In this document: positions 12,600 through 64,000 of the stretch, piece after piece
Layout: every line of letters starts with the position of its first letter
Position numbering within the stretch: position 1 is the stretch's first letter
Assembly: GCA_903896925.1 (NCBI GenBank)
Contig: CAITZM010000016.1
Span: 859-64,858, forward strand
From: an uncultured Lentisphaerota bacterium
GTDB taxonomy: Bacteria > Verrucomicrobiota > Kiritimatiellia > CAIQIC01
Direction: 5' to 3'
DNA: 64,000 nucleotides
The notes under the pieces: generated by a model
What the model was told of the DNA's origin: nothing
The model's database searches: none
The model's input: only the letters and a program-made list of their open reading frames with translations
Translations under genes and position numbers: made by a program

Positions 12600-12770
12600 G
12601 GTGACCGGTCATGGGATAGTGTGCGGACTCGGCGAAAATGAAACCCGACCTGGCGAGCTTCGTATCCTCGCTGTGCTGGCGCGCGCGCTCAATGGCGTCG
12701 CGGCTCGTGCCGTCGCCGGCGGGGTCGACGCCCGCCTTGCGCAGCGCATCCACGAGTACCGGACTTCTGT

Positions 12771-14270: not shown

Positions 14271-14305
14271 TACCTAAAGGGTTTAGATCTTGTTTCCTGG
14301 TCGGG

Positions 14306-15604: not shown

Positions 15605-15694
15605 GACTGGTTTATGCTTCCTACGGTTTTGCTTGGAAGTTGCTCGATGGCGATGGACAAGGGACAGATGCTTTGATCGCCTTGTCGCCGGACT

Positions 15695-17371: not shown

Positions 17372-17373
17372 GG

Positions 17374-19563: not shown

Positions 19564-19596
19564 GGTTCAGAGTGTCCTTGGTTGCCCCAGTCATTT

Positions 19597-21087
19597 CTAT
19601 TTTACCGCCATGATATATCCCTTTTCAAGGCCCGCGCTGTTGTGTAGGCGCACCTCATTTCCCTTCACTTCGACATCGCCCAGGCCGCTGGCGGCTTCGA
19701 TGAACAAAGGGTCCGTTTGCTGGATGGTCTCGACCTTCAAGCCCGCCGGGATTTTCACCACGCCATCCGGCCTGAGCCAAACCGCGAAGAGTTTGCCCGT
19801 CTTGGGATGGGTGGACCAGATCACACTTTCGCTGATGCAACTGCCCGGACTGGAATAAGTCTTCCCATCCCAGGACCGTTTGGCCAGGGGGATGCCATTC
19901 CGATTGTCCCAAGCGGCGACCCGGCGCACGAGTTGCAGGCGGGCAGGCACATCGGCAATATTTTTGAAATTGGGCATGTTCCCGGTGCCGCCAAACCGCC
20001 CAAACCAAGCAAAGCAGGAACCGTGGACGGCCGCATGGGCGGCGAGTTCACGGTTTTCCTTCTCAGTAAAGCAGTTCGGGGTTGAGCAACCCACGGCCGC
20101 ATGGCCTTTGATCAGACCCGAGTCAAATATCCGCGTATCGGTGGCGAATTCCTTCCCGGCGCTTTCCTGCAAAAGCAGGTCCGGCATGATCTCCTTCGCA
20201 TCCGGCCGGTTCTTGACCAGCTCCAGCCAATTCTCCCAGATCCGATAAGGCTCCATGATGAACTTGGCTGCGGGAAATTGAGCGCGAGTTTGCGTGAAGA
20301 GGTGGCGATAAAATGCCGCATGGCCATCGCTGACGGTGGCGTATCGAAAAGTTGTCCCGGAGGGCTTATAGGCGCTGTCGGTGCCGGTCCAATGAGCCAC
20401 GGTGATCTGCCGGCCGCCGCCCCCCTTGCCGCCATGAGCTTGCTGCTTGTCCCAAAAATCTCCCGTGAGATTCGGCACATCCCACGCGTATCCGGCGAAG
20501 AGAAAGCGGCGATCCTTCCTTTCCAGCGTCTTCACACGGTGAATAATATGTTCTATGAAGTAATCGATGACCTCCTGGTTTTGATAATCCGGCTCCACCG
20601 AAAACACCGTGGGAGTGAAAAACCAGCCCGTAGCGAGGTTGCCGGGGAATGGCTGGTTGTCTTTCTTGACGAAGTAATGCTCGTATAATTTCCGCTCGCT
20701 GGCGGTGTAGGTCTTGGTCGGATCAAAGTTTCGCCGCACCGGGTAAACCTGATACTCGGGCCCATCCAGGTAAAAACCCAGGTCGGCAGCAAGGGGATTG
20801 GTTTCCATCCCGCGCTGATACATAACAAAGTCATAGCCCATCTGCCTGGCAAACCGGAGGTTTGATTCGACATCGCCGCGCCAAGCGATGCCATAGAAAT
20901 CCCGATAGTCTTTCGGCGGCAACGCATGGGGAAGCGAGGGCTCGGCAGCAAGTCGGCTCACACCGGACAAGAGCAGAAGCAAGCATAAACCAACGGCCAG
21001 TTTAACCGGATGGCCATGGGGGAGTATCGAACCAGCCGCCAGACGGATACTCGCGATCGGCCCTAGAGGTGTAGTCCTCGTTTTCAT
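19597..21087 (-). CDS. Uncharacterised secreted protein, family A copy 2
   Basis: The track ORF 19597..21126 was trimmed to the ATG at 21087 (MKTRTTPLGPIASIRLAAG...), which forms an ATGA overlap with the family B2 stop. By eye it is about 40-45% identical to 12771..14270. Confidence 0.7.
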   Translation of the reverse strand: MKTRTTPLGPIASIRLAAGSILPHGHPVKLAVGLCLLLLLSGVSRLAAEPSLPHALPPKDYRDFYGIAWRGDVESNLRFARQMGYDFVMYQRGMETNPLAADLGFYLDGPEYQVYPVRRNFDPTKTYTASERKLYEHYFVKKDNQPFPGNLATGWFFTPTVFSVEPDYQNQEVIDYFIEHIIHRVKTLERKDRRFLFAGYAWDVPNLTGDFWDKQQAHGGKGGGGRQITVAHWTGTDSAYKPSGTTFRYATVSDGHAAFYRHLFTQTRAQFPAAKFIMEPYRIWENWLELVKNRPDAKEIMPDLLLQESAGKEFATDTRIFDSGLIKGHAAVGCSTPNCFTEKENRELAAHAAVHGSCFAWFGRFGGTGNMPNFKNIADVPARLQLVRRVAAWDNRNGIPLAKRSWDGKTYSSPGSCISESVIWSTHPKTGKLFAVWLRPDGVVKIPAGLKVETIQQTDPLFIEAASGLGDVEVKGNEVRLHNSAGLEKGYIMAVK

Positions 21088-22385
21088 GGTTCCTTGGTTT
21101 TGTTGGGCAGCGCGTAGTAGGCGCACTCGGAGAAGAAGAACTCCGACATGTTGAGCTTCGCATAGTCGTAGTGGCGCAGCGCCCTCTCGATGGCGTCGCG
21201 GCCGGTGCCCTCGCCGGCGAGCGCGACGACCGCCGCCGCCGCGAGCGGGTTCCTCATGTAGCGGGACTCATAACCCTTGCGCGCGCCGCGTTTCGTTTTG
21301 TCGCCGGTTTCCGACAAGCGCTTGGCCTCGGCCTGCGTCGGCTGCGGGAACCATGTCGTGTAGACCGCCCGCCAGTTGGCGTTGCCAAAGACCTTCGTGT
21401 CGTTGTTGTCGAAGCCCTGGTAGGCCTCGATGCTGGCGAGGGCCGACTGGGCGTTGAGGGCCAGTCCGGCGCGGTACTGTGCGCAAAGGGCCGCATCGGT
21501 CTCCAACGCGACGAGTTGCGCCAGCGCGCCTTGAGAGCCGACGTAGATCCACAGCCCGTATTCTTCGATCCCCTTGATCGCCTCGCGATCATGCGGATAG
21601 CCGGCGGCGCAGATCTCGGAGCGCGTCTTCTCGCTCTTCGCGGGCCGCTCGGCGGCGGCCTTCCGGTAACGCTCGAGCCAGACGTTGTCGCCCGTCACAT
21701 CGAACATCGCCCTCAACATGAACAAATACCGCACGGCATCGCGGAACAGATGCCCTTGGAAGCCGCCACGGAAATCTTTCTTGAACGCGCCGTCGCAAGG
21801 ACATTTCCAGCCGGTGGACTCCAGCACGTTCGCGACTGCCTGCATCTTCTGCACGATCTGCTTGCGCTCCGCGTCGGAAGGCAGGCCGCTCTTGCAATAG
21901 GCGTGCAGGCCCAGGAACCACGGTTGCGTCTGGTCGTCGGAGCCGAGCGGATAATGGCAGCGGCCATCGGTGCCCATGCCGCGCGCGATGAAGCCGGGCA
22001 CATCGGAAACCGAGGCGCATTTCACGAGGCCCTCCGCGAGCCGGCGCGCGTTGGCCTTGTCTGCGGCGGCGCCGCTACGGCGCGCGCGCTCGCACATCGC
22101 CGGCAGATACATGCCGGTGAACATCGGCCCGTTCTCGATCGGGCTCCACCAGCCGATCGCGTTCGGCCGCCCGAGCTGGCAGTCCTCGGGCGTGGGGATT
22201 TCGCCGACGTAGTCGAGCATCACACCGTGCCGGTCAATGCGCCTGCCCCACAGCTCCGCGTGCGCCTGCTCGACGGCTTGGAGCGTCGTTCGCGCCGGGC
22301 TTGGTTCTGCCGCTTGTGCTCCAGTCATCGCACCGGCTGCGGAGAGCGCAGCAGCCAACAGCAGCGTACCCGTTGACGTTTTCAT
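21084..22385 (-). CDS. Uncharacterised secreted protein, family B copy 2
   Basis: The track ORF ends at 22412. The start was set at the internal ATG 22385 (MKTSTGTLLLAAALSAAGAMTGAQA, signal peptide), which avoids overlap with the GH10 gene. It shares AVEQAHAELW, GWWSPIENGPMF, DQTQPWFLGL and RHYDYAKL with 14306..15604. Confidence 0.7.
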   Translation of the reverse strand: MKTSTGTLLLAAALSAAGAMTGAQAAEPSPARTTLQAVEQAHAELWGRRIDRHGVMLDYVGEIPTPEDCQLGRPNAIGWWSPIENGPMFTGMYLPAMCERARRSGAAADKANARRLAEGLVKCASVSDVPGFIARGMGTDGRCHYPLGSDDQTQPWFLGLHAYCKSGLPSDAERKQIVQKMQAVANVLESTGWKCPCDGAFKKDFRGGFQGHLFRDAVRYLFMLRAMFDVTGDNVWLERYRKAAAERPAKSEKTRSEICAAGYPHDREAIKGIEEYGLWIYVGSQGALAQLVALETDAALCAQYRAGLALNAQSALASIEAYQGFDNNDTKVFGNANWRAVYTTWFPQPTQAEAKRLSETGDKTKRGARKGYESRYMRNPLAAAAVVALAGEGTGRDAIERALRHYDYAKLNMSEFFFSECAYYALPNKTKEP

Positions 22386-43370: not shown

Positions 43371-43480
43371 TCGGTCGGGCGGGTGCTGAGCGACCTGCGC
43401 GGCAACGTTGGGGTTGTGTCGGGCCTGCTGTCGTTGGCGATACCTCGAAGTTCGAGGTATCCGTGGGCTGTGGCTGTCGT
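43371..43480. repeat. About 110-bp direct-repeat element, copy 1, containing the perfect hairpin GATACCTCG-aagtt-CGAGGTATC
   Basis: About 80% identical to 43646..43755. The stems are identical and the loops diverged. Confidence 0.6.
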
Positions 43481-43568: not shown

Positions 43569-43594
43569 AATGATTCTGTCCACCATGGTGATGT
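43569..43594 (+). repeat. 26-bp motif ATGATTCTG-TCCACC-ATGGTGATGTC (tandem ATGRTTCTG half-sites 15 bp apart); it starts a 31-codon ORF MILSTMVMSR...
   Basis: Related copies are at 51189..51214 (minus orientation) and 51280..51305. Confidence 0.45.
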
Positions 43595-43645
43595 CGCGTC
43601 TTGCAGCGCTGTCGGCCCTCGCCTCGAAACTCACCCTCGACACCA

Positions 43646-43755
43646 AGCGGTCGGTCAGCTGCTGAACGACCTGCGCGGTGACGCCGGGGTTGTGCAGGGC
43701 CTGACGGCTTTGGCGATACCTCGGTATCCGAGGTATCCGTGGTCTGTGGCTTGTA
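43646..43755. repeat. About 110-bp direct-repeat element, copy 2, containing the hairpin GATACCTCG-gtatc-CGAGGTATC
   Basis: See copy 1. Spacing between the copies is about 275 bp. Confidence 0.6.
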
Positions 43756-43834
43756 TCATTTCGTGAGCGCGGTTGGATGGTGAAGGAGCGTGGCCTGGAT
43801 ACTAGTATCAGAATTTGTTTTCTCAGCAGGCTGG

Positions 43835-43948
43835 TAGGGCACCTTACGAAAGCCTCTCGTGGAGCGAGAGGTCTACTATGACGCGGCGGCAACGTAGTCC
43901 TCACGCTCCGCCTGAGGCGGACAAGTCTGCGTGAGGTTTGGCTGCGGC
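43835..43948. repeat. About 110-bp inverted repeat, left copy, 75 bp downstream of the radical SAM gene stop; contains hairpins CCTCTCG-N6-CGAGAGG and CCTCACGC...GCGTGAGG
   Basis: The reverse complement of 45647..45757 aligns at about 80% identity, with one 17-bp indel. Confidence 0.6.
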
Positions 43949-44022
43949 GCCAGTCGCGCCGGGCACTCTTCACGACGATCCGCTGGCGGGCTGCGCTCGG
44001 ATGGATGGCGGCTCGCGCGAGG

Positions 44023-45501
44023 TCACGCGTGGACCGAGGCGGAGGTGCGGCGGAAATGATGACCGTAGATGGCCAGGGTGACGGCCAGGGGCAGCAGGCG
44101 CGGACAGCGGAAGAAGGTCCATACCAGCAGGCCCCAGTACTGGAAGCGCTCGCGGCCGATGATGCCGAGGCGGAACGTGGAGCGCAGAAACGCCGAACAG
44201 TTGCGCCAGCTCATGTTCGAGGGGATTTTGGGCGGATGATATTCGCGCAGGAACGTGCGTACCCGCTTGTAGTAGGGACCCGGCGCGTAGATGTGCTGGA
44301 GGATGCGCCCGTAGCCGGCGCGCAGTTTTTCGATGCCCATGCGCGGTACGACGTTGGTCGTGCCATCCGAATTGTTTCCAGTGGACGGGCCGGCGAGGCG
44401 GCCTTCGCGTTTCAGGCGCGCGTAGAGCTTGGTGCCGGGCGGGGCGCTCAGCATGCCGACCATCGCGGTGACAATGCCGCTCTTCTGGATGAAGTCGATC
44501 TGCCGCTGGAAGATGGAGGCCGTGTCGCTGTCGAAGCCGACGATGAACCCGCCTTGCACCTGCAGGCCCGAGTTCTGGATGCGCTTGATGTCCGCGATCA
44601 GGTTGCGGTGCTGGTTCTGGCCCTTGTTGCATTCGGCCAGGCCGGCCTCGTCCGGCGTCTCGATGCCGATGAAGACCGTGTCGAAGCCCGCCTGCACCAT
44701 CGCCCCCATCAGCTCGGCGTCGTCTGCCAGGTTGATCGAGGCCTCGGTGAAGAACGTGATGCTGGGGTGCGCCTGCCGCCAGGCGCTCAGGACGGGCAGC
44801 AGCTCTTCCTTGAGATAGCGTTTGTTGCCGATGAAGTTGTCATCCACGAAGAACACCTGCCGGTGCCAGCCGGCCTGATAGAGGCCTTCCAGTTCGGCGA
44901 CGATCTGGGCCGGCGACTTCATGCGCGGGCGGTGGCCAAAGAGCGCGGTGATGTTGCAGAACTCGCAGTCGAACGGGCAGCCGCGTGAGAATTGGATGCT
45001 CATTGAGGCGTAGCGCTTCAGGTCGGCCAGGCCCCACAGCGGCACGGGCGTCTGGTGCAGGTCGGGGAATTCCGTCGACGTATAGATGCGTTGCGGAGTG
45101 CCTTGTTCCCAGTCGTGCAGGAACCTGGGTAGCGTCACCTCGGCCTCGTTCAATACGAAATGATCCACCTCGGGGAATTGCTCCTGTTCGGCGCTGAAGA
45201 GCGGCCCGCCGGCGACCACCGTTTTCCCGGCCGCATGGGCGCGGGCGATCAGCTCCCGTGCGGAGTCGCGCTGGGCGATCATGGCGCTGATGAACACCAC
45301 CTCGGCCCAGGCAAGGTCGCTGGCCTGCAGGCGGCGTATGTTGACATCCACCAGCCGCTTGGACCACGCGGCGGGCAGCATGGCCGCGACGGTCAGCAGG
45401 CCCAAGGGCGGCAGCGAAACTTTCCGGTGGACGAACTTCAAGGCGTGCTTGAAGCTCCAGAAGGTCTCCGGAAATTCCGGGTATAGTAATAACACTTTCA
45501 C
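44023..45501 (-). CDS. B12-binding-domain radical SAM protein (class B, DUF4070-type C-terminus), function unknown
   Basis: 492 aa. The N-terminus MKVLLLYPEFPETFWSFKHALKFVHRKVSLPPLGLLTVAAMLP is a cobalamin-binding fold. CPFDCEFC is the CxxxCxxC radical SAM cluster motif. Confidence 0.8.
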   Translation of the reverse strand: MKVLLLYPEFPETFWSFKHALKFVHRKVSLPPLGLLTVAAMLPAAWSKRLVDVNIRRLQASDLAWAEVVFISAMIAQRDSARELIARAHAAGKTVVAGGPLFSAEQEQFPEVDHFVLNEAEVTLPRFLHDWEQGTPQRIYTSTEFPDLHQTPVPLWGLADLKRYASMSIQFSRGCPFDCEFCNITALFGHRPRMKSPAQIVAELEGLYQAGWHRQVFFVDDNFIGNKRYLKEELLPVLSAWRQAHPSITFFTEASINLADDAELMGAMVQAGFDTVFIGIETPDEAGLAECNKGQNQHRNLIADIKRIQNSGLQVQGGFIVGFDSDTASIFQRQIDFIQKSGIVTAMVGMLSAPPGTKLYARLKREGRLAGPSTGNNSDGTTNVVPRMGIEKLRAGYGRILQHIYAPGPYYKRVRTFLREYHPPKIPSNMSWRNCSAFLRSTFRLGIIGRERFQYWGLLVWTFFRCPRLLPLAVTLAIYGHHFRRTSASVHA

Positions 45502-45646
45502 AAGAAAAGATACGCCCGAAGAGTACGATCGCCAGCCGCCGTCAGCAATGAGTTTTCCAAGCCGGCAGCACCCTCACCCCGAGAAGGGAGAGGTCGAGAG
45601 CAGCAGAAGCGCTCACGCCTTCTGCTGGTGAGCACAGCGCGGCCTA

Positions 45647-45757
45647 CGGCCGCAACCAAACCTCACGCGGAGCGTGAGGACCACTTTGCCGGAGCCGCCG
45701 CCATAGTAGTCCTCTCGTTCCGCGAGAGGCTTTTGTAAGTTGCCCTGCCGGCACTCT
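45647..45757. repeat. About 110-bp inverted repeat, right copy, about 145 bp upstream of the radical SAM start
   Basis: See the left copy. It has internal hairpins CCTCACGC-ggag-CGTGAGG and CCTCTCG-ttccg-CGAGAGG. Confidence 0.6.
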
Positions 45758-45904
45758 GAAAATAAATATCTTTTCCGTAATGCGGCGATTTTTCAGGCTA
45801 GTTGCAGAGACGACTCTTTCACACCTGTACCGCATACTGCGCTTTGGGCGCTTGGCTTCCTCGCCCCTCTGGGAAGAGGACGGAGGTGAGGGGCACGCTG
45901 CTGT

Positions 45905-46879
45905 TTAGCGGATCGGCACGGGCTGGTTCCACGTGTGCTGGCCGTCGAAGACCGCGGTGAAGAGGTGGGTGGCCGCGCCATTCTCGAACAGCAGCCAAGG
46001 CCGCTCGCGGCGCACGGGGTGAAACTCCGTCCCGTCCGACCAGCGGATGGTGTGGTCATAATCCGCGGCGGCGGACAGCGGCTGCCAGTCGTGGAGGCCG
46101 TCCTTGGATACCAGATGGGCGCCCCACCGCGCTTGGCCGGTGATGTGGCCCGCGTTGTCCTCGCAGAGCAGGTGCCACCGGTCCCCCTGCTTGAAGAAAA
46201 AGAAATCCTCCAGCCGCGCCGCCGGCCAGAGATTGGTGTTGGCGAGCTGATAGGGGCCGGCGTAGTTGGTCGCGGTGGAGATGCAGACGCGCAGGTCCTT
46301 GGTCCGCCAGACCAGTTTCAGGCAGCCGTCGGCTTCGAAGCAGGCGCTGGGGTTGTTGGCGTCGGTGGCGCAGCCGAGGTCGAGCGGTCGGTCGCTGCGC
46401 GCCCACGGCCCGGTGATCGCCGGCGCTGTGGCGCAGCCGATCTGCCGGTAGCTCGCGCCGACATCCGAGCCGATGTAGAAGAGCACGAACCGGTCGCCGA
46501 CCCGGTAGATTGCCGGATTGTGCGCCATGCCGGCGTCCCAACGGCCTGCGGCGCGCGCGCCGATGACGACCTCCTGGAACGTGTAGGGGCCTTCCGGCCG
46601 CGTGGCGGTGGCGCGCACGATTTCCGAATGCTGGCGGTAGCCCTCGGGGAATTTCGTCGCCTCCGGCCAGCGCGCGGCGAACAGGTGATAGGTCGCGCCG
46701 ACCTTGATGGCGGCGCCGCACCAGACGAAATAGCCCGGCATCCGGAATCCGCTGTCGCGGCTCGCCGGTTGCAGCCGCTCGCGCAGCGAGGGCTCGGCCG
46801 CCGTTGCGGGCACCAGCGTCAGGCCGGGCAGCGCGAGCAGCGCAGAGACAACCAGGCGGCGCAGCTGGGGCCGGTTCAT
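45905..46879 (-). CDS. Secreted five-bladed beta-propeller glycoside hydrolase-like protein (GH43/GH117-like)
   Basis: 324 aa with signal peptide MNRPQLRRLVVSALLALPGLTLVPATAAE. Motifs MAHNPAIYRVGDRFVLFYIGSD and DRWHLLCEDNAGH. The family assignment is tentative. Confidence 0.5.
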   Translation of the reverse strand: MNRPQLRRLVVSALLALPGLTLVPATAAEPSLRERLQPASRDSGFRMPGYFVWCGAAIKVGATYHLFAARWPEATKFPEGYRQHSEIVRATATRPEGPYTFQEVVIGARAAGRWDAGMAHNPAIYRVGDRFVLFYIGSDVGASYRQIGCATAPAITGPWARSDRPLDLGCATDANNPSACFEADGCLKLVWRTKDLRVCISTATNYAGPYQLANTNLWPAARLEDFFFFKQGDRWHLLCEDNAGHITGQARWGAHLVSKDGLHDWQPLSAAADYDHTIRWSDGTEFHPVRRERPWLLFENGAATHLFTAVFDGQHTWNQPVPIR

Positions 46880-47565
46880 GGCGTCTTCTTGGCCGGCGCC
46901 GGCGGCGTGAGGGGCTGATAGGTCTCGATGAACTTGAGGAGGGTGGGGCGGTACTGTTCGGCCAGCTCGGCCGGCATCTCGCAGAAAATCTGGTGGGCGA
47001 TGCGATCCTTGACGAAGTCGATCGCCAGGACCTTGCTCTTCATCAGCGCCAGCTCCCGCCGCGCGGCGGGGATGCCGTGGAGGTAAATGGTCTGCACCTC
47101 GGTGCGCACGTTGTTGTCGCGCTCGCGCTGGCTCATCGCCTTGAACAGTGTCGGCAGGTCGTCGAACGGCACGCGCGCCGCGCTCAGGCTGACGCTGACC
47201 CGGTTCGGGCTGACGAGCGTGAGGTCATAGGGCGCCACGTCCGGGCCCGTCTGCAGCACCCAGCCGTCCGGCTCCACGAAGCTGAACAGGCCGCCGGCGG
47301 CGGTGACGCGCCGCCCGGCGGCGATATCGCGCTCCAGTTGCTGGAGCTCGGCCGGCACGCTTTGCAGCTGCTGCGAAAAACTGCCGCCGCGGCTCAAGTG
47401 GACCATGTCGGCGACGATGGCCACCACGAACAGGACGCCGAAGGTCAGCAGCAGCGGCTGCACCCAGCGATGCCTGTCCGCGTCCAGGGCGATTTCCCCC
47501 CGCCGCGGCACAGCCTTCAGCCGCCGCTCCCGCATTTTGCCGAGTTGTTCGAGTGTTATTTTCAT
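46876..47565 (-). CDS. Hypothetical membrane protein (single TM segment), translationally coupled to the GH43-like gene
   Basis: 229 aa. TM segment WVQPLLLTFGVLFVVAIVADMV. ATGA overlap with the downstream gene. Confidence 0.55.
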   Translation of the reverse strand: MKITLEQLGKMRERRLKAVPRRGEIALDADRHRWVQPLLLTFGVLFVVAIVADMVHLSRGGSFSQQLQSVPAELQQLERDIAAGRRVTAAGGLFSFVEPDGWVLQTGPDVAPYDLTLVSPNRVSVSLSAARVPFDDLPTLFKAMSQRERDNNVRTEVQTIYLHGIPAARRELALMKSKVLAIDFVKDRIAHQIFCEMPAELAEQYRPTLLKFIETYQPLTPPAPAKKTP

Positions 47566-47702
47566 GCGACCCGTTGCAATCTAGCGGCCCGCCGCCCGCC
47601 CCGCAAGCCAAAGCGGGCCTGTCCTGTCGTCAGCGCCGGGGCCAGCGACCTTTGCGCCGACCCGGCGCTTGACTTGGCGCGGCAACCCGAGAAAATGCAC
47701 GC

Positions 47703-49010
47703 ATGAACTTCCCACGTCGGCTGGACTGCGGATCCCGGCGCGCCTGCGCCCTCGCTGCTTTGGTCGTGCTCGGGTTGCTGGCCGTCGGCGCCGCGCCTGC
47801 ATCCAAGACGAAAACCGCGCCGTCTCCGCTGACGTGGAAGGCTGGCGTGGCTTCCGTCTTGGTCACGCCGACCAACCTCTTGTGGATGGCGGGATACGCC
47901 GCGCGCAAGAAGCCTGCCGAGGGCAAGGTGCAGGAGCTCTTCGCCAAGGCGCTGGCGCTGCAGGATGAGCAGGGTCAGAAACTCGTCATCGTGACCATGG
48001 ATTTGATCGGGGTGGGGCAGCCGCTCCATCACCGTCTCGCCGAGCGCGTGCAGCGGGAACTGGGTTTGCCGCCGCAGTTTCTCCTGCTGAACGCCTCGCA
48101 CACGCACTCCGGGCCGGCGCTGCGCACGACGCCGGTGACGGCGAAGGACCTGGAGAACGAGCGCACGCGCAGCGCCTATGCCTACACGCAGCAACTGGAA
48201 AGCAACTTGTTCCAAGTGATCAGCGAAGCGCTGGCGCGCCTGGAACCGGCCCGGCTGACGTGGCACCGCGCGCAGTGCGGCTTCGCGATGAACCGCCGGC
48301 TGCCGTCGCCGACCGGTTATCGCAACAGCCCGAACCCCGACGGACCGGTGGATCACGAGGTGCCGGTCTTGCGCGTCGAGGTCGCGGGCGGGGTGTTGCG
48401 CGCGCTGCTCTTCGGGTACGCCTGCCACAACACCTGCCTGGGCTTCTACAACTATTGCGGCGACTATGCCGGCTACGCGCAGGAGTATGTGCAGGCGAAC
48501 CGGACCAACTGCATCGCGCTGTTCCTCCAGGGCTGCGCCGCCGATCAGAATCCCTACCCGCGCGGCACCGGCGTGGTGCCGGGCCTGACGGATCTCGATC
48601 TCGCCCGGCAGCACGGCCGCACGCTCGCCAACGCCGTGGAGATGGCGAACCTGACCCCGCAGCGTGAGGTGCATGGTCCGCTGCGCGCCGCTTACGAGGA
48701 GGTCGCGCTCGACTATGCAAAGCCGCGCCCGGCGCACCCCTATCCCGTGCAGGTGATCCAGTTCGGCCCGGATCTCACGCTCGTCGCGCTCGGGAGCGAA
48801 GTGGTGGTCGACTACTCGCTGCGCCTGAAGAAGGAACTGGCGGGCCAGGCGGCGGTGTGGATCGTCGGCTACGCGAACGACTACAGCGGCTACATCCCGA
48901 GCCTGCGCGTGCTCAAGGAGGGCGGCTATGAGGCGCAAGCCGGCTGGGCCGACACGGTCGAGGAGCGCATCGTCGGGAAGGTCCACGAACTCTACGGGCG
49001 TTTGCGTTAA
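47703..49010 (+). CDS. Neutral/alkaline ceramidase N-terminal-domain family hydrolase, secreted
   Basis: 435 aa with a signal peptide. LLNASHTHSGPAL matches the neutral-ceramidase GASHTHSGP zinc-site motif. Confidence 0.6.
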   Translation: MNFPRRLDCGSRRACALAALVVLGLLAVGAAPASKTKTAPSPLTWKAGVASVLVTPTNLLWMAGYAARKKPAEGKVQELFAKALALQDEQGQKLVIVTMDLIGVGQPLHHRLAERVQRELGLPPQFLLLNASHTHSGPALRTTPVTAKDLENERTRSAYAYTQQLESNLFQVISEALARLEPARLTWHRAQCGFAMNRRLPSPTGYRNSPNPDGPVDHEVPVLRVEVAGGVLRALLFGYACHNTCLGFYNYCGDYAGYAQEYVQANRTNCIALFLQGCAADQNPYPRGTGVVPGLTDLDLARQHGRTLANAVEMANLTPQREVHGPLRAAYEEVALDYAKPRPAHPYPVQVIQFGPDLTLVALGSEVVVDYSLRLKKELAGQAAVWIVGYANDYSGYIPSLRVLKEGGYEAQAGWADTVEERIVGKVHELYGRLR

Positions 49011-49291
49011 TCCCTGCTGCACCAACAACGCGCGGCGATGTGCGGGTGCGTTTCCCTTTTCGGTCTTTGGAGTATGGGCTGGCCGTGTTCTGACGAACGC
49101 GGCTGCTTGCGTGAGACTCAAATTCAATCATGCAGAGGAATTTGCTGTCGGTGCTTTGTTTATTTCGTAGCCGCACTCGTGAGCGTGCGGCCCGCCCGGT
49201 CCTGCACAAAAGCGCAGACGAAAATCTGCCCGGCAGCAGCGCTCCTTTGCGGCGCGTGTGCTAATGCCGGTTTTTCTGTTAAGCTCCGCCC

Positions 49292-50983
49292 ATGAAAGCT
49301 GACAAAGAACTGTACCGGGAACTGCGCGGACTGACGTGCGACCAGCTCTGGAACGACGAGGTGGCGCGCTTCAACCGGGCGACGCCGAAGGAACGGATGG
49401 ACCGCGTGGCGGTCATCCGCGCCGTCGGCGTGGTCTTTGCCGGCCGCGGGACCGCGGAACAGCGGATCGCCGTCCGGGCGTGGCTGCGGGGGCTGCTGCA
49501 GGATCCCGCCGAGAAAATCCGTCGGTATGCGATGGCGGCGCTGCCGAAAATCGGCGCGGGCGAGGGCGAGGAAAAGGAACTGTTGTCCTTGCTCCAGACC
49601 ACCACGGTGGAGCGCGAGAAGAAATTTCTGGGCCGGGCGCTCGACAAGATCGGCGGCGCGGCGACGCTGGATGTGGTCGCCAGCGTACCGGGGCTCCTGC
49701 CGCAGACGGAGCAAAAGGTGCGCGCAAGCCTGGCGCGCAAGGAACAGCCGAGCGCGATCCGGATGGACCAGGTCTTCCCTTGCGTCCCCGAACTCCGGAT
49801 TCATCTTCGCTGCCGGCGCGGCCTGGAGGGGATCGTGCGCGATGAGCTGCAGGACTACATCGCGAAGCGTGGCCCGTTCCGGCTCCTGGAGGTGCAACCG
49901 GGCGTCGTCGCCGTGGCGCCCATCGCGCCGTTTTCGCTGACCCAAATTTATGTGCTGCGTTGTTTCGCCACGGTGGGCTTTGTCCTCGGTACGGTCCGGC
50001 CGGCCGGTGATGCGGAAGCCGTGGAGGGCCTGGCCGCGGCGCTCACCTCGCCGCTGTCGCGGCAGCTCCTGACGGCGTTCACGGAAGGTTCCATCCGTTA
50101 CCGCCTGGATTTCATCGGCAAGGGTCACCAGCGTGGCGCGGTGCGCGATGTGGTCAACCGTGCCTACGCGCTGTGCCCGGAGATTTTGAACGATGCGCGC
50201 AGCGCGCCGTGGGCGATGGATGTGTACGAGACCGGGAGCGGCCAGGCGGTCGAGCTGCGGCCGAAGTTCGCGCCCGATCCGCGGCTCGGCTATCGCCTGG
50301 ACGACGTGGATGCGGCCTCCCATCCGCCGCTGGCCGCCTGCATGGCCCGGCTGGCCGGACGGAAGGGCGCGGAGCTGGTGTGGGATCCGTTCTGCGGCTC
50401 GGGACTGGAACTGATCGAAAGCGCGCTGCTGGGCGGCGTGAAGCAACTCTTCGGCACGGATATCAGCCCGGAGGCCATTGCGATCGCGCAGGCGAATGTC
50501 GCGGCAGCCCAGCTGAAGGACGTCCCGGCGAAGCTGGTCTGCTGTGACTTTCGCAGGCACGCCCAGATCGATGGCCTCGGCCCGGCGAGCGTCACGCTGG
50601 TCATCACGAATCCGCCGCTGGGCCGGCGCGTCCGCGTGCCTGATATGCGCGGGCTGTTTGCCGATCTCTTCAGCGTCGCGGCGAACGTGCTCAAGCCCGG
50701 CGGCCGGCTGGTCTTCGCCAATCCGCTGAAGCTTGAACCCAGCGACCCCTCGCTGAAACTCCAGTATCGGGAGGTCATCGACCTCGGCGGGTTCGATTGC
50801 CGGCTGGAAATGTATGAAAAGCTGGCGGGACCGGCCGCGCGGCCCATGCCGCCCGCGGCGCGCGCGACAACCGTAAAACGCAGTCCTGAAGCGGGCCGTG
50901 ACGATCGCGACAAGGCGCGCTGGTTTTCCGGCATGAGCCGCACCCGTCCACCTGCGCAGCGGCATGGCCGGGACCGGGCATAG
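49292..50983 (+). CDS. THUMP-domain class I SAM-dependent RNA methyltransferase (RlmL/RlmKL-like) with an N-terminal HEAT-like region
   Basis: 563 aa. VWDPFCGSGLELIESAL is SAM-binding motif I. LVITNPPLGRR is the NPP(Y/L) catalytic motif. Confidence 0.65.
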   Translation: MKADKELYRELRGLTCDQLWNDEVARFNRATPKERMDRVAVIRAVGVVFAGRGTAEQRIAVRAWLRGLLQDPAEKIRRYAMAALPKIGAGEGEEKELLSLLQTTTVEREKKFLGRALDKIGGAATLDVVASVPGLLPQTEQKVRASLARKEQPSAIRMDQVFPCVPELRIHLRCRRGLEGIVRDELQDYIAKRGPFRLLEVQPGVVAVAPIAPFSLTQIYVLRCFATVGFVLGTVRPAGDAEAVEGLAAALTSPLSRQLLTAFTEGSIRYRLDFIGKGHQRGAVRDVVNRAYALCPEILNDARSAPWAMDVYETGSGQAVELRPKFAPDPRLGYRLDDVDAASHPPLAACMARLAGRKGAELVWDPFCGSGLELIESALLGGVKQLFGTDISPEAIAIAQANVAAAQLKDVPAKLVCCDFRRHAQIDGLGPASVTLVITNPPLGRRVRVPDMRGLFADLFSVAANVLKPGGRLVFANPLKLEPSDPSLKLQYREVIDLGGFDCRLEMYEKLAGPAARPMPPAARATTVKRSPEAGRDDRDKARWFSGMSRTRPPAQRHGRDRA

Positions 50984-51188
50984 GCCGGTTTCCGGGTGCA
51001 GTGGCCTGCGGGCAGTTCCGGGACATCGCGGTTGGATCGATCCGGCTGGCCGGGGGAGCGGCGGCACTCCTGCCGCCGCAGAAAGAAACAGCGCGGCTAC
51101 GCCGCAGCCCAACTTCACGCGGACTTGTCCGCCTCAGGTGGAGTTGGAAGGTCACTATTCCGAAACCGCCATCCGAAGCGTAAGAGAC

Positions 51189-51214
51189 GACAGAATCATT
51201 GATGGCAGAACCAT
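51189..51214 (-). repeat. Inverted copy of the ATGRTTCTG-N6-ATGRTTCTGTC motif; on the minus strand it starts a 19-codon ORF MVLPSMILSSLTLRMAVSE
   Basis: The plus strand reads GACAGAATCATTGATGGCAGAACCAT. It forms an imperfect inverted repeat with 51280..51305, about 81% identical, with a 65-bp spacer. Confidence 0.45.
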
Positions 51215-51279
51215 TTCAAGAAGGCGCGAGCGCTACGCACGGCGGCGACCAAGCAGCCCAATCTGACCTTCGCCGTCTA

Positions 51280-51305
51280 ATGATTCTGCCGACCATGGTT
51301 CTGTC
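51280..51305 (+). repeat. ATGATTCTG-CCGACC-ATGGTTCTGTC motif; it starts a 12-codon ORF MILPTMVLSKSM
   Basis: Read directly. Related to 43569..43594. Confidence 0.45.
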
Positions 51306-51568
51306 AAAATCCATGTAAAGTGAGTTGAGCAACCTAAATGCTGATGGTTAGCAATGCAGAACGCGAGACCTGTTCATCTTGCACGTAGAGGGCTGGGATG
51401 AGTTGGGGCTGTTTCGGCGGCAGGAGTGCCGCCGCTCCCTGCAGCGGTGCTCCGGATGGTGTCGCACGCAGCAAGCTTTCCAGCGCTGTCATCCGTGAAA
51501 GAAGCGGGTGAGGTGCTGCTGGGCCCCGCGCCACCCGCCCCTTGACACTTGGCCCTCGTCCCTTCCGT

Positions 51569-52006
51569 TCAGCGCCGGGCGCGGTTCTGGGTGACGAAGT
51601 GCTCGCGGGTGTAAGAACAAGCGGTTTCGAGGCTGGGCAGGAGCTTGGTGCAGAAGCGGACCATCCACGGGTTGCTGTCCTTGAACGTGAACGGGGTGAA
51701 GGCGATGACGAACTTGTTCAGGTCGTGGCTGGCGTAGAACACCTCCATCGCGGTGCCGATGGAGTTCTTGTTGTAGTTGACGAGGATGATGTCGGCGTCG
51801 CGCACGTCCTGCAGGTCGAACTCGACGATTTCGTTGGCGCTGTCCACCTCGCGGTCCTTGAAGTTGCGGCGCATGGGGTCGAGGAGGATGAAGTGCTTGC
51901 CGAGCAGCTTTTTCGCGGTTTCGCGCCACGCGCGGGCCTGGCCCTCGTGCTCGTCCATGATCGGTCCGCACAGGTAAATCTTCTGCTTGCCCGTTTCGTT
52001 TTTCAT
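51569..52006 (-). CDS. Nucleoside 2-deoxyribosyltransferase-like (NDT/LOG-like Rossmann) protein
   Basis: 145 aa. KIYLCGPI and MEVFYASH match NDT-family motifs. Confidence 0.5.
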   Translation of the reverse strand: MKNETGKQKIYLCGPIMDEHEGQARAWRETAKKLLGKHFILLDPMRRNFKDREVDSANEIVEFDLQDVRDADIILVNYNKNSIGTAMEVFYASHDLNKFVIAFTPFTFKDSNPWMVRFCTKLLPSLETACSYTREHFVTQNRARR

Positions 52007-61135: not shown

Positions 61136-64000
61136 GTGAATACATGGTTTTTACGCAAGCCGGACGGCGAAATTTACGGGCCGGTGGAGCAGTCGGAACT
61201 GGTGCGGTGGGCCAGCACCGACCGCATCGCGCCGGATGACGATATTTCGTCGGACCGCAAGGAGTGGCTGTCCGCGGCCAAGATGCCCGGGCTCAAGCTC
61301 AACTGGATGATCGAGTGGCCGGACGGTCATCGCGCCGGCCCTTATCATGTCAGCTCGCTCGGCGAAATGCTCGCCGACGGCGAACTGGAGGGCAACGAAG
61401 CCGTCCGGCACGTGCATTCCCAGCAGGCGGCCTCGTTGCTGGAGACCCTGCAGCAAGGGTTGCTGGCCGGCGAACTCCACCTCGGAGAGGGCGCCCTCAC
61501 CGCGGCCTTGTGCGGGATGATGCGCATCCAGACCGAGGACCCGCTGGCCGTCACCAGCCTCCTGGCCGGCGCACCGCCGGTGCAACCCGCTCCGGTCGTT
61601 TCCGCGGCGCCGGTACCGGTGGCGCCGGTCCCCTCGTCCCCGCTGCCGGCCGACCCAGGCGAGGGTGTGCGGAGGGCGGAGGCTGCCGGGGCACCCCAGG
61701 CTAAACTTTCCCTCACGCCCGCACCCGCGGCTCCGGCCGACGCCGGACAGAGCGACGAACTGGCCAAGGTGCGTGCGGCGCTCGCGGCACAGGTGGAGCA
61801 GGCGGCAGACGTCGCCCGGCAGTTGCAGGCGCAGCAGGCCGAGGCCGGCCGGTTGCGGCAGGAATGCGCAGCGCTGCAAAAGGCGCAAGCGGCGGAACGC
61901 CAGACGGCACAGCAGCAGGCGGCCACGCTGCAGCAGGTGCAGGCCCAACTCAAGGTAGCGCGAGCCGAGGCGCAGACGGCCAGCACCGCCACGGAAGCGC
62001 TACAGAAGACCCTGGATACCCTGCAGCGCGAACAGGGCGAGCGCGAGGCGGCTGCGCGCCGCGACGAACAAAGCGTCCTGAAGTTCAAGGAGCTACAGGC
62101 CGAGCAGGAAAAGCAACTGGCGGCGGCCCGCCTGCAGGCCGAGCAACAGGCCACCGCCTGCCAACAGGCGCAGGCGCAGTTGGCGCGCGCGCTCGCCGAA
62201 GCTGCGGCGACGGCCAAGGATCGCGACACCCTGCGGACCAACCTCCACGCGGCGGAGCGTGCCGTCGGGCGGCTGGCCGAGGAGCGCCAGCAGAGCGAGA
62301 CCGGGCTGCGTGCCGAGACGCAGGCGGTCAGCGCCGTCCGGGATGCGCTTCAGAAAAAACTCGAAGCCGGTCAGCGCGAACTGAGCGAGCGCGAGGCCAC
62401 CGTGCGTCAGCACGAGCAGAACGCGAAAAATTTCCAGGTGCAGGTGGCCGATGCGGAGAAGCAGCTGGTTGCCGCCCGCGCGCAGGCCGAGCAGCAGGGC
62501 GCCGCGCTCAAGCAGGCGCAGGATCAGCTGGCGGCCCGGCAGCGCGAGTTGGGCGAGCGCGATGTCGCCGTGCGCCAGCACGAGCAGCAGTCGAAGAGCT
62601 TCCAGACGCAGCTGGCCGATACGGGCATAAAATTCGCCGCGGCCCGTGCGCAGGTGGAGCAGCAGGGTGCCGCGCTCAAGCAGGCGCAGGATCAGCTGGC
62701 GGCCCGGCAGCGCGAGCTGGGCGAGCGCGATGCCGCCGCACGGCAGCATGAGCAGAACGCGAAGAATTTACAGGCGCAGGTGGCCGGTGCGGAGAAGCAG
62801 CTGGCGGCGGCCCGGGCGCAGGCCGAGCAGCAGGGCGCCGCCCTCAAACAGGCCCAGGAACAGCTCACGGCCCGCCAAGCCCAGCTCGACGCCGCCACGA
62901 AGCAGCGCACGGCGCTGGAGACCGAACGTGCGGGGCTGGTCAAGCAGCGCGACGCGCTGCAAAGCGAGCGCGAGGCCGCGCTGAAGAAGGCCGGCGAGCA
63001 GGAGCGGCTGGCGGAGGAGCGTCAGAAGGCCACCGCGCAGGCGCGAAACGAGGCGCAGACCGCCTTCGCCGCCCGGGACACCGCGCAAAAAACGCTGGAG
63101 GGCGTACGCCGCGAACTCGAAGAGACCAGCAGCAAGCTGGCGGAGCGGGATTTTTCGCTCCGGCAAGCCCAGCAGCAACTGCGCAAGCTCGAGGAGCAAG
63201 TGGTCGGGGCCGAGGCCGCGCTGGCGGAGGCGCAGCAGCAGCGCGACCGCGCGGAGGCCATCGCCGGCGACGCCGAGGCCGCGGTGGAGGCGGAGCGGGA
63301 AACGGATATTCTCAAGCGCGCCGCCTTGCAGCTGGAGCGGGACAATGCCGTCGAACGCTCCGAGGAGCGTGGCCGGTTTTGCGAGGAGATCTCGGCCGAG
63401 AAACGGCGCATGGAGCAACAGCTGCGCGGCGAGCTGAAGCAGGCGCAGGCCGCACGCGACGAAGCGCAGCGGGTGGTCGCGGATGCGCAGCGCGAAGCGG
63501 AGCAGGGGCGCGGGCGGGTGACAGCGGCCGAGGAGCAACTGCGCCAGCAGCAGCGCGCGGCGCAGGAGGCCCAGCAGCAGCTGGCCAGACTTTCTGCGCA
63601 GGTGGCGCAGGCCCAGTCCCTGCAACGGCAGGCCGAAACCGACGTGCAGCGGGAGCGCGAGGCCCGGAAGCGGCTCGAGACCGAAGCCCAGCAGGCGCAG
63701 ACCCTGCAGCGGCAGGCCGAAACCGACTTGCAGCGGGAGCGTGATACCCGGAAGCGGCTTGAGACCGAGGCGCAACAGGCGCAGGCCGAGCGCAGCCGGC
63801 AGGAAGCCGCGGTACAGCAACTGCGTCGCGATCTGGAGGCGGCCCGGCAGCGCGCGCCGGCCGTGCCTGCGCCGCCGCCCCAAGCCGACAAAGAAGCCGC
63901 AGAAGTGCGGCGCATGGGAGCCGAGGCGCAGCAGGCGCGCGAGGCCCGACAGCGGCTGGAGTCCGAACTGCAGCAGGCCCGGCAGGCCCGGCAGGGCTTG
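61136..64000 (+). CDS. Giant coiled-coil protein with two N-terminal GYF-like (DUF4339-type) domains; 3' end beyond the window end
   Basis: My own translation from about 61136 (GTG; the frame has TWFLRKPDGEIYGPVEQSELVRWASTDRIAPDDDISSDRKEWLSAAKMPG, then a second WMIEWPDGHRAGPYHVSSLGEMLADGELEG). A Pro-rich linker follows, then more than 800 aa of Q/A/E/R-rich heptad sequence with no stop to position 64000. It is absent from the ORF track because there is no stop in the window. The listed ORFs 61151..63915 on both strands are shadows of it. Confidence 0.7.
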   Translation, partial: MNTWFLRKPDGEIYGPVEQSELVRWASTDRIAPDDDISSDRKEWLSAAKMPGLKLNWMIEWPDGHRAGPYHVSSLGEMLADGELEGNEAVRHVHSQQAASLLETLQQGLLAGELHLGEGALTAALCGMMRIQTEDPLAVTSLLAGAPPVQPAPVVSAAPVPVAPVPSSPLPADPGEGVRRAEAAGAPQAKLSLTPAPAAPADAGQSDELAKVRAALAAQVEQAADVARQLQAQQAEAGRLRQECAALQKAQAAERQTAQQQAATLQQVQAQLKVARAEAQTASTATEALQKTLDTLQREQGEREAAARRDEQSVLKFKELQAEQEKQLAAARLQAEQQATACQQAQAQLARALAEAAATAKDRDTLRTNLHAAERAVGRLAEERQQSETGLRAETQAVSAVRDALQKKLEAGQRELSEREATVRQHEQNAKNFQVQVADAEKQLVAARAQAEQQGAALKQAQDQLAARQRELGERDVAVRQHEQQSKSFQTQLADTGIKFAAARAQVEQQGAALKQAQDQLAARQRELGERDAAARQHEQNAKNLQAQVAGAEKQLAAARAQAEQQGAALKQAQEQLTARQAQLDAATKQRTALETERAGLVKQRDALQSEREAALKKAGEQERLAEERQKATAQARNEAQTAFAARDTAQKTLEGVRRELEETSSKLAERDFSLRQAQQQLRKLEEQVVGAEAALAEAQQQRDRAEAIAGDAEAAVEAERETDILKRAALQLERDNAVERSEERGRFCEEISAEKRRMEQQLRGELKQAQAARDEAQRVVADAQREAEQGRGRVTAAEEQLRQQQRAAQEAQQQLARLSAQVAQAQSLQRQAETDVQREREARKRLETEAQQAQTLQRQAETDLQRERDTRKRLETEAQQAQAERSRQEAAVQQLRRDLEAARQRAPAVPAPPPQADKEAAEVRRMGAEAQQAREARQRLESELQQARQARQGL
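62404..62907 (+). repeat. Three tandem 168-bp (56-aa) coding repeats (RQHEQNAKNFQVQVADAEKQLVAARAQAEQQGAALKQAQDQLAARQRELGERD...); a further 2 x 84-bp repeat lies at about 63621..63788
   Basis: Read directly in the coiled-coil gene frame. The copies are about 85-90% identical at protein level. Confidence 0.6.

Follow-up and report, generated by a model that had tools for sequence, protein, structure and literature searches.

A 64,000-nucleotide stretch of DNA from an uncultured Lentisphaerota bacterium (assembly GCA_903896925.1, contig CAITZM010000016.1, positions 859 to 64,858; hereafter "the window") contains, near 51.2 kb, two inverted repeat arms which are each built from two tandem copies of a 12-bp word, together with a solitary arm of the same type at 43.57 kb. 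The interpretation favoured here, to which a probability of roughly 0.65 is assigned, is that pair and solitary arm are both copies of a palindromic repeat element whose full-length form is a cassette carrying a nuclease gene, the pair at 51.19-51.31 kb lacking the gene and the arm at 43.57 kb being a decayed half. In genomes of Verrucomicrobiota, Planctomycetota and KSB1 the arms occur in physical linkage with this gene, which encodes a protein of the GxxExxY (PDDEXK_3) family, and gene-less arm pairs are dispersed at unrelated intergenic sites with arm details that are those of the resident gene-bearing copy. The subject is a DNA word which is conserved across phyla, marks both the start and the stop of a gene and is also scattered as gene-less pairs; for annotation, it accounts for a class of intergenic palindromes and spurious micro-open reading frames (micro-ORFs) in genomes of the Planctomycetes-Verrucomicrobia-Chlamydiae (PVC) group.

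A preliminary description of this DNA had reported three 26-bp copies of a motif with two ATGRTTCTG half-sites. Exact matches to the pattern ATGRTTCTG-N6-ATGRTTCTG are found at 51191-51214 (-) and 51280-51303 (+), while the third copy, which matches from 43570 to 43593 (+) rather than from the reported start at 43569, has two mismatches because its second half-site is ATGGTGATG and not ATGRTTCTG, so that two of the three copies are exact and one has decayed. Three motif matches in the 64 kb compare with 0.01 expected from shuffled sequence, and the exact 9-mer half-sites number five, all of them inside the three copies, against 0.54 expected. The 15-bp distance between half-sites and the 65-bp gap separating the two 26-mers near 51.2 kb were borne out, as was the placement of the pair between a methyltransferase gene and an NDT-like gene: codon-position G+C and Pfam matches locate a UPF0020/RlmL-like methyltransferase gene at 49292-50983 (+) to the left of the arms and the NDT-like gene at 51569-52006 (-) to the right, the two neighbours being convergent. 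A sequence logo of all half-sites shows that the unit is better defined as the 12-mer A-ATGATTCTG-[TC]-C followed by a variable gap of 3 nt, which gives a 15-bp period with no conservation outside the unit; the conserved 12-mer is AATGATTCTGTC, which is repeated in direct tandem, and the repeat has no internal palindrome. So defined, the arms extend over 51189-51215 and 51279-51305; paired with each other, they give a stem of about 25 bp with interruptions, for which folding predicts -48.1 kcal/mol (z = -4.8). The features of the element in the window are as follows.

51189-51215 (-): left arm, two 12-mers on the minus strand, AATGGTTCTGCC atc AATGATTCTGTC
51216-51278 (no strand): spacer of 63 bp, occupying the place of the nuclease gene in full-length elements
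51279-51305 (+): right arm, AATGATTCTGCC gac CATGGTTCTGTC, pairing with the left arm in the stem of about 25 bp
51280-51307 (-): sigma-70-like promoter, the right arm read inward, TTGACA, 16 nt, AATCAT; consensus match only, 10 of 12 positions
51092-51106 (-): terminator-like hairpin with a T run, downstream of the inward promoter; consensus match only, membership in the element uncertain
43569-43595 (+): orphan decayed arm, AATGATTCTGTC cac CATGGTGATGTC, first 12-mer perfect, second degenerate

The arm at 43.57 kb is 86% identical to the right arm over 28 nt and has a similar gap; no partner arm for it was seen in the window.

The three copies are not an isolated occurrence. A 27-nt degenerate pattern, applied to one genome of each GTDB species, matched at 97 loci or more, compared to about two expected by chance according to our arithmetic. 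Among the matches listed, about seven match through degenerate positions only, and the remainder lie nearly all in Verrucomicrobiota sensu lato, including Lentisphaeria and Kiritimatiellia, or in Planctomycetota (three loci), with a few in unclassified or doubtfully binned metagenome-assembled genomes (MAGs). The listed carriers include Akkermansiaceae, Terrimicrobiaceae, Prosthecobacter, Luteolibacter, Victivallales/Lentisphaeria and Kiritimatiellia; nearly all carrier genomes are MAGs of PVC lineages, and they span the range from AT-rich to GC-rich. When the 70 strict tandem matches with enough flanking sequence were searched for an inverted partner within 200 bp, a partner was found upstream in 35 (at most 7 of 24 mismatches) and downstream in 7 (at most 6 mismatches), a ratio of divergent to convergent orientation of 5 to 1; random windows never fell below 8 mismatches. 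Because divergent partners prevail, the typical element consists of two copies of GACAGAATCATT, a spacer of 12-125 bp and two copies of AATGATTCTGTC. Lone arms make up about 35-40% of sites; three tandem units are found in L028 and L080, and clusters of alternating orientation in L019, L020 and L081. Gene-less elements are intergenic, lying between two plus-strand genes (27), two minus-strand genes (21), convergent genes (16) or divergent genes (7), and adjoin unrelated housekeeping genes such as gidA, mnmE, obg, rsmH and those for tRNA synthetases, CPSase and G6PD. They recur with sharp borders at different loci within one genome and at different loci of related genomes, and indel polymorphism of gene-less copies is observed.

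This comparison also decides the fate of the coding interpretation. It had been claimed that each copy starts a tiny ORF, which is literally true in the window, where the three copies are all open from the ATG, encode peptides of the reported 31, 19 and 12 aa and are similar in their first nine residues. The property is not conserved among the copies of other genomes, however: the codons of the 6-nt spacer, which had been said always to encode small residues, contain stop codons within the repeat unit in 13 of about 110 copies elsewhere (including L010, L019-, L027, L037, L048, L064+, L076, L083, L093 and L094), and the ORFs that run from the motif ATG in these approximately 110 copies range from 3 to more than 66 aa and have unrelated tails. 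The interpretation of the copies as micro-proteins or leader peptides starting M-[IV]-L-x-x-M-[IV]-L-S fails because of these stops, the variable lengths and the unrelated tails. In addition, no Shine-Dalgarno sequence precedes the copies, the partner arm has the same DNA read on the other strand, and there is no downstream gene to attenuate because the window pair sits between convergent genes. It is the DNA 12-mer that is kept and not the peptide, and the coding interpretation can be given next to no credence.

The recurrent gene emerged from clustering of 524 ORFs at the motif loci, which yielded one recurrent family: proteins of 265-277 aa with an N-terminal PF13366 domain (PDDEXK_3, "GxxExxY"). 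The whole gene lies between both arms in L062 (Victivallaceae) and L095 (Gemmataceae); in the partial loci L097 and L031 a distance of 19-20 nt separates an arm from the start codon, and in L019, also partial, the stop codon is the TGA within the first AATGATTCTG. The gene is present at 5 of the approximately 97 motif-ascertained loci listed, where gene-less elements outnumber gene-bearing ones about 20 to 1. The association was also evaluated in a protein-first set of 32 loci fetched regardless of the motif, namely 4 from assemblies and 29 from metagenomes (28 counted). In this set an oriented 10-mer with at most two mismatches lies within 100 nt upstream of the gene at 27 of 29 loci and at or after the stop codon at 28 of 31, compared to 5 of 29 and 8 of 31 for the wrong orientation and 5.7% for random windows. 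The downstream arm begins exactly 2 nt before the stop codon (AA, then TGA) in 17 of 31 loci, and in 13 of 29 the upstream arm is separated from the ATG by 16-20 nt that include a GGAGG. Variant arms are paired across the gene, CAAAATCAT with ATGATTTTG and CAGAATAATT with AATTATTCTG, and there is in addition a KSB1 form. The full-length cassette of about 0.9 kb accordingly comprises two copies of GACAGAATCATT, about 17 nt containing a Shine-Dalgarno sequence, the gene, and two copies of AATGATTCTGTC, the stop codon being the TGA inside the first downstream 12-mer; the (NDSVx)n tails of some predicted proteins are a translated run of the 15-bp repeat.

Some of these features are those expected if the arms were purely regulatory, that is, the promoter and operator of an autoregulated GxxExxY gene, with the gene-less pairs as orphan promoter/operator modules or as decaying remnants of cassettes that have lost the gene, and no mobility. 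The inward arm matches TTGACA-16-AATCAT, the distance from arm to ATG is fixed and contains a Shine-Dalgarno sequence, and the cassettes occur at conserved loci and are co-directional with their neighbours (7 of 7 upstream and 6 of 7 downstream, for loci with called genes). A promoter does not require an inverted copy exactly at the stop codon, however, nor the conservation of both full 12-mers, and gene-less pairs with genome-specific arm details are found at many unrelated sites, the 16 convergent-gene regions included, and in the numerical excess given above. We consider a purely regulatory role unlikely.

The gene-less pairs are tied to the gene-bearing cassettes by the 6-nt gaps within the arms, which are genome-specific and common to both kinds of copy. 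The gap TACGTA occurs in L095 and L090 of the Gemmataceae MAG, TCAAAA in L062, L029 and L089 of the Victivallaceae MAG, and TGATGG/CCATCA in L108 and the window. The left arm of the window is nearly identical, gap included, to the GxxExxY-flanking arms of L108 and L109, and it aligns together with about 19 nt of its inner flank to the upstream arm of L108 and the start of the 5' untranslated region there, which the first approximately 19 nt of the spacer resemble.

A cassette comparison in L115, L119 and L121, which have both neighbouring genes in common, separates the conserved cores from these gaps. The nuclease proteins are 50-56% identical and the synonymous third positions, at 16-38% identity, are saturated, while the 9-10-nt repeat cores are intact and the intra-arm gaps unrelated. 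Because the cores have remained intact despite saturated synonymous sites and beside unrelated gaps, the alignment indicates purifying selection on the sequence of the 12-mer cores itself; preservation of a stem or recent copying would not suffice as an explanation. The conserved cores and free gaps also make it most likely that the 12-mers are protein-recognition sites, to which extent the earlier idea of tandem binding sites stands.

The same contrast bears on a role at the RNA level, in which the arms would pair in read-through transcripts and the stem would be cut by RNase III or would insulate or stabilize the flanking mRNA. The arms do fold into a stem with the low z-score given above, the cassettes lie co-directionally in tight intercistronic gaps, of 44 gene-less elements in co-directional contexts we counted 31 that are nearer the upstream gene's stop codon, and the arrangement resembles the stems around ORF-containing 23S rRNA intervening sequences or REP (repetitive extragenic palindromic) stems in operons. 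A stem alone would tolerate compensatory changes, however, whereas the 12-mer is kept from AT-rich to GC-rich genomes and the gaps drift without compensation; the lone arms are unable to form a stem, and a transcript beginning at the promoter within the arm would leave the upstream arm out of the mRNA. The probability of a primarily RNA-level role is judged to be small.

The inverted pair does resemble the termini of a small non-autonomous element, as the preliminary description proposed in mentioning a miniature inverted-repeat transposable element (MITE). For a conventional MITE, with 27-bp terminal inverted repeats bound by a DDE transposase encoded elsewhere, the arguments are the inverted termini with two sub-sites per end, complementary over 27 bp apart from the gaps, the length of 60-200 bp, the dispersed copies, the insertion polymorphism and the reading TG...CA at about half of the outer ends. 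Seventeen complete pairs show no target-site duplications, however, neither the 159 flanking ORFs nor the clustering of the 524 motif-locus ORFs revealed a transposase, and no gene other than that of the GxxExxY nuclease is repeatedly found between the arms. These results make a conventional MITE very improbable.

Other candidates were also set aside. Pfam scans of the 159 flanking ORFs revealed no enriched family and the neighbours are functionally incoherent, so that the elements do not delineate a transcription-factor regulon; half-sites that stand alone in the fetched loci are, by our arithmetic, about as frequent as chance predicts, the excess being limited to tandem clusters, which is not the distribution of a DNA-uptake sequence; and the arms are followed by A-rich rather than T-rich sequence, unlike an intrinsic terminator. 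To our knowledge, none of the LexA, Fur, PhoB, ArgR, FNR, IHF and DnaA boxes fits a 15-bp direct period with variable arm spacing, nor do Xer/dif sites, attC sites or the ends of Tn7, Mu or IS21. A literature search by motif sequence returned primers only.

The bracketed protein belongs to a large family with thousands of members. For the recurrent protein a profile search gave no fewer than 247 clusters at 90% identity, which either lack a name or are called "GxxExxY protein", and an exhaustive search gave 393 clusters at 50% identity (E <= 1e-30). TIGR04256 and PF13366 cover residues 20-128 approximately, with family matches of 75-95 bits against a curated cut-off of 35 and E = 7e-28 for PF13366, and D79, E89 and K91, invariant in 20 sequences, are confined to this N-terminal domain. 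In an AlphaFold2 model (pLDDT 78.7) the protein folds into two domains that share the topology alpha-alpha-beta-beta-beta-alpha-beta-beta, and Foldseek matches include Cas4 SSO0001, lambda exonuclease, the RecB nuclease domain, Hjc and EndA. The sequence similarity between the two domains is weak (GRFxDExIYQ in the N-terminal and WGAFLDxxLYR in the C-terminal domain; hhalign E = 0.023), and the case for a domain duplication therefore rests mainly on the matching topology of the model. We read the protein as a predicted active PD-(D/E)XK domain fused to an inactive duplicate of the fold. The nuclease is absent from the viral contigs searched, and the motif from 2.9 million viral contigs. A superfamily survey lists the function of PDDEXK_3 as "Unknown" (PMC3424549). 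Full-text literature searches returned no paper linking GxxExxY proteins to repeats, and the association of repeat and nuclease appears to be undescribed at the level of the family; the link gives a large multi-copy family of unknown function its first testable role.

The preferred interpretation, a gene-less copy of a nuclease cassette, suggests a mechanism in which the 12-mers would be recognized by the nuclease that they bracket, most likely via its inactive second domain or as a pseudo-dimer. In full-length cassettes the tandem pair read inward may serve as a weak sigma-70-type promoter driving the gene, for which its distance from the gene is suitable. The resident nuclease would make and maintain gene-less pairs in trans by a break-and-repair process, homing-like or by gene conversion, and the pairs would depend on it as REPINs (REP doublets forming hairpins) depend on RAYT (the REP-associated tyrosine transposase); a hydrolytic nuclease suggests homing-like copying of this kind rather than transposition. 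Such a system would constitute a second, mechanistically different example of a long-term association between genome and repeat of the REP/RAYT type. The gene-bearing cassette appears to be vertically inherited at conserved loci, which fits a resident, RAYT-like gene. In the window, the inward promoter would start a minus-strand transcript near 51273 that could end at the hairpin 51106-51092, giving a length of about 190 nt. The window element probably does nothing for its convergent neighbour genes and is inert; at most, its arms may form a hairpin when read-through RNA is made, or the right arm may act as an orphan promoter that points inward and produces this transcript.

Several points weigh against this interpretation. 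The window contains no nuclease gene within its 64 kb and no remnant of one, since a tblastn search with 60 family members gave chance matches only, and the G+C content of L108, the locus with the matching arm, is 58% compared to 65.5% for the window. The census loci were ascertained with a near-perfect tandem pattern, and the taxonomic labels of the MAGs are as deposited. The borders of the complete pairs that lack target-site duplications also show no defined insertion footprint. PD-(D/E)XK nucleases hydrolyse DNA and do not join it, which leaves the route of gene-less pairs to new sites unexplained, and the vertical inheritance of the cassette argues against frequent movement of the gene. 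The association of arm and nuclease, including the link between the protein and the 12-mer, could be regulatory only. As for the promoter, its -35-like part is only moderately conserved in the logo, and L109 fails the promoter scan that calls the window arm.

The layout extends beyond the two-domain protein. All four short GxxExxY genes examined (125-134 aa) have the same arrangement with other repeats. Their arms are of the 9-bp AATTCTGT[CT] type, with (ACAGAATTA)n ahead of the gene and (TAATTCTGT)n at its stop codon, in L034 (1552-2016), L138 (9961-10427 and 11280-11694) and L139 (9972-10428), and of a CTTTGCG type in L080 (4220-4990); L138 also has gene-less clusters of its own repeat about 1 kb away. 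It is conceivable, though we would sooner bet against it than for it, that all GxxExxY (PDDEXK_3/TIGR04256) proteins are the resident nucleases of an ancient, unrecognized class of repeat-associated elements. Were this so, every subfamily would have a repeat of its own in inverted arrays on either side of the gene and would seed gene-less pairs genome-wide, the two-domain form with a 12-mer every 15 bp and the single-domain forms with a 9-mer or other short repeat. A REPIN/RAYT-like or homing-like lifestyle would then be based on a hydrolytic nuclease of the restriction-enzyme fold instead of a transposase.

Individual loci display further features. In L106 (2700-4010) a long GxxExxY cassette has arrays expanded to six 48-bp units before the gene and eleven 15-bp units after it, the second array being translated as (NDSAV)n. 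This cassette is part of a BREX-like defence locus, where its neighbours are an N6_N4 methyltransferase gene on one side and the genes for an SNF2 helicase and PglZ on the other. In L020 (25-3194) motif clusters flank a VapB/PIN toxin-antitoxin pair on both sides, and the palindrome reaches 22 nt past the arms; in L022, L034 and L056 an arm is followed by a Phd-like antitoxin gene, a sample too small for judging an association with accessory cassettes. GTAG-tagged, REP-like hairpins (..GGCAGTCATAGACAGCCGCTACAG.., reverse complement CTGTAGCGGC..) adjoin the 12-mer arms in loci of the Terrimicrobiaceae/Chthoniobacterales type, namely L056 (3680-3830), L071, L099, L122, L125 and L129-L132, where they are downstream of the arms, and L056 differs from L022 and L034 by a 136-bp insertion of this type. 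Two unrelated repeat systems therefore occupy the same intergenic sites. The REPs known from PVC bacteria are of the GTAG type (PMC3733652).

Relatives of the window provide a context for the region around the arm pair, in which contigs of the same strain are identical. The gap between the methyltransferase and NDT-like genes is 585 bp in the window, compared to 12 bp in L006 and 61 bp in L007, whose methyltransferases are 80-81% identical to that of the window; L005 (86% identity) has an intergenic region of 513 bp without the motif, of which the right-hand 100 nt or so alone are shared with the window. The 585-bp region is an insertion by comparison with L006 and L007. It also contains a perfect 25-nt inverted repeat (51054-51078 and 51415-51439), each arm of which is a GC-rich hairpin (GCGGCGGCA CTCC TGCCGCCGC) preceded by GTTGGG(G)CTG..CTGTTTC. 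These arms sit 110 and 109 nt outside the motif arms, and because of this symmetry the whole 386-bp stretch is a nested palindrome; the right-hand hairpin alone has a similar counterpart in L005, and L006 and L007 are without the entire stretch.

The long intergenic regions at 43.16-44.02, 45.50-45.90 and 50.98-51.57 kb have further repeats in common, at 43813-43949 (+), 45649-45769 (-) and 51100-51143 (-). They comprise a 44-nt element (43906-43949 (+) and 51100-51143 (-), 91% identity) and a 71-nt inverted repeat (43813-43883 and 45699-45769) with conserved small hairpins (CCTCTCG..CGAGAGG and CCTCACGC..GCGTGAGG), and one copy lies in the 5' leader of a B12-binding radical SAM gene (44023-45501, -). 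These shared repeats could be an unannotated RNA element; they have no Rfam match, and in the window as a whole no Rfam family matches at its gathering threshold, with chance-level matches only in 43-52 kb. A 104-nt direct repeat (43372-43475 and 43648-43751, 82% identity) lies on either side of the orphan arm at 43569, and each of its copies has a strong palindrome (GATACCTCGAAGTTCGAGGTATC / GATACCTCGGTATCCGAGGTATC). Elsewhere in the window, 12600-22300 has a G+C content of 55-60% against about 66% and contains diverged paralogous segments (15113-15499 and 21906-22277, 73-75% identical; also 12617-12736 and 21115-21234), and may be a duplicated or acquired gene block. Tandem repeats of 168 bp and 84 bp in which CAGCAGG/GAGCGCGAG is abundant make up the coding region at 61900-64000, which has a strong purine skew and is probably part of a long coiled-coil repeat protein that extends past the end of the window.

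The elements described here have partial counterparts among known systems. Like the Correia MITEs of Neisseria, they are dispersed intergenic sequences of 60-200 bp with inverted termini of about 26 bp, RNA hairpins and promoter-like sequences; Correia elements generate TA duplications and have no associated gene, whereas no duplication is seen here and a nuclease gene has the same termini. As in the case of homing endonuclease genes, whether free-standing or intron-borne, including that of the PD-(D/E)XK enzyme I-Ssp6803I, a nuclease gene lies inside a sequence that also has an empty form, and the gene-less arm pair looks like an unoccupied homing site, the compatibility being one of architecture. 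Here, however, the "site" is a multi-copy dispersed repeat and not a unique conserved gene, the nuclease gene appears to be stably inherited, and no locus with both occupied and empty alleles was found among the loci examined. ORF-containing intervening sequences of 23S rRNA, which encode S23p/four-helix-bundle proteins, likewise present a small ORF of a large paralogous family, enclosed in stem-forming inverted repeats and co-directional with the host transcript that contains it; the present elements differ in lying in protein-coding operons and intergenic DNA, in the fold of the protein and in their repeats.

The REP and REPIN elements associated with a RAYT gene, reportedly described in Pseudomonas and E. 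coli by Bertels and Rainey in 2011, differ from these elements in several respects. The REP unit is an individually palindromic sequence of 20-40 bp with a GTAG or CGTC tag, whereas the 12-mers are tandem direct repeats without such a tag; RAYT is an HUH Y1 transposase related to IS200/IS605, while the gene bracketed here encodes a two-domain PD-(D/E)XK nuclease (PF13366/TIGR04256); REPs are specific to a species or genus, whereas the core sequence of the 12-mer is kept across phyla; and, unlike the REPIN/RAYT arrangement, an arm overlaps the stop codon of the gene and its putative promoter. Literature searches on REPIN/RAYT in PVC bacteria returned no description of the association between the arms and GxxExxY genes. 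In both systems, short intergenic repeats occur as inverted doublets and in clusters of alternating orientation, a usually single and vertically inherited gene is bracketed by inverted repeats whose variants track the resident gene, and there are many gene-less copies per gene without target duplications. It is the REPIN/RAYT systems that the stable, syntenic, single gene with its many gene-less satellites most closely resembles.

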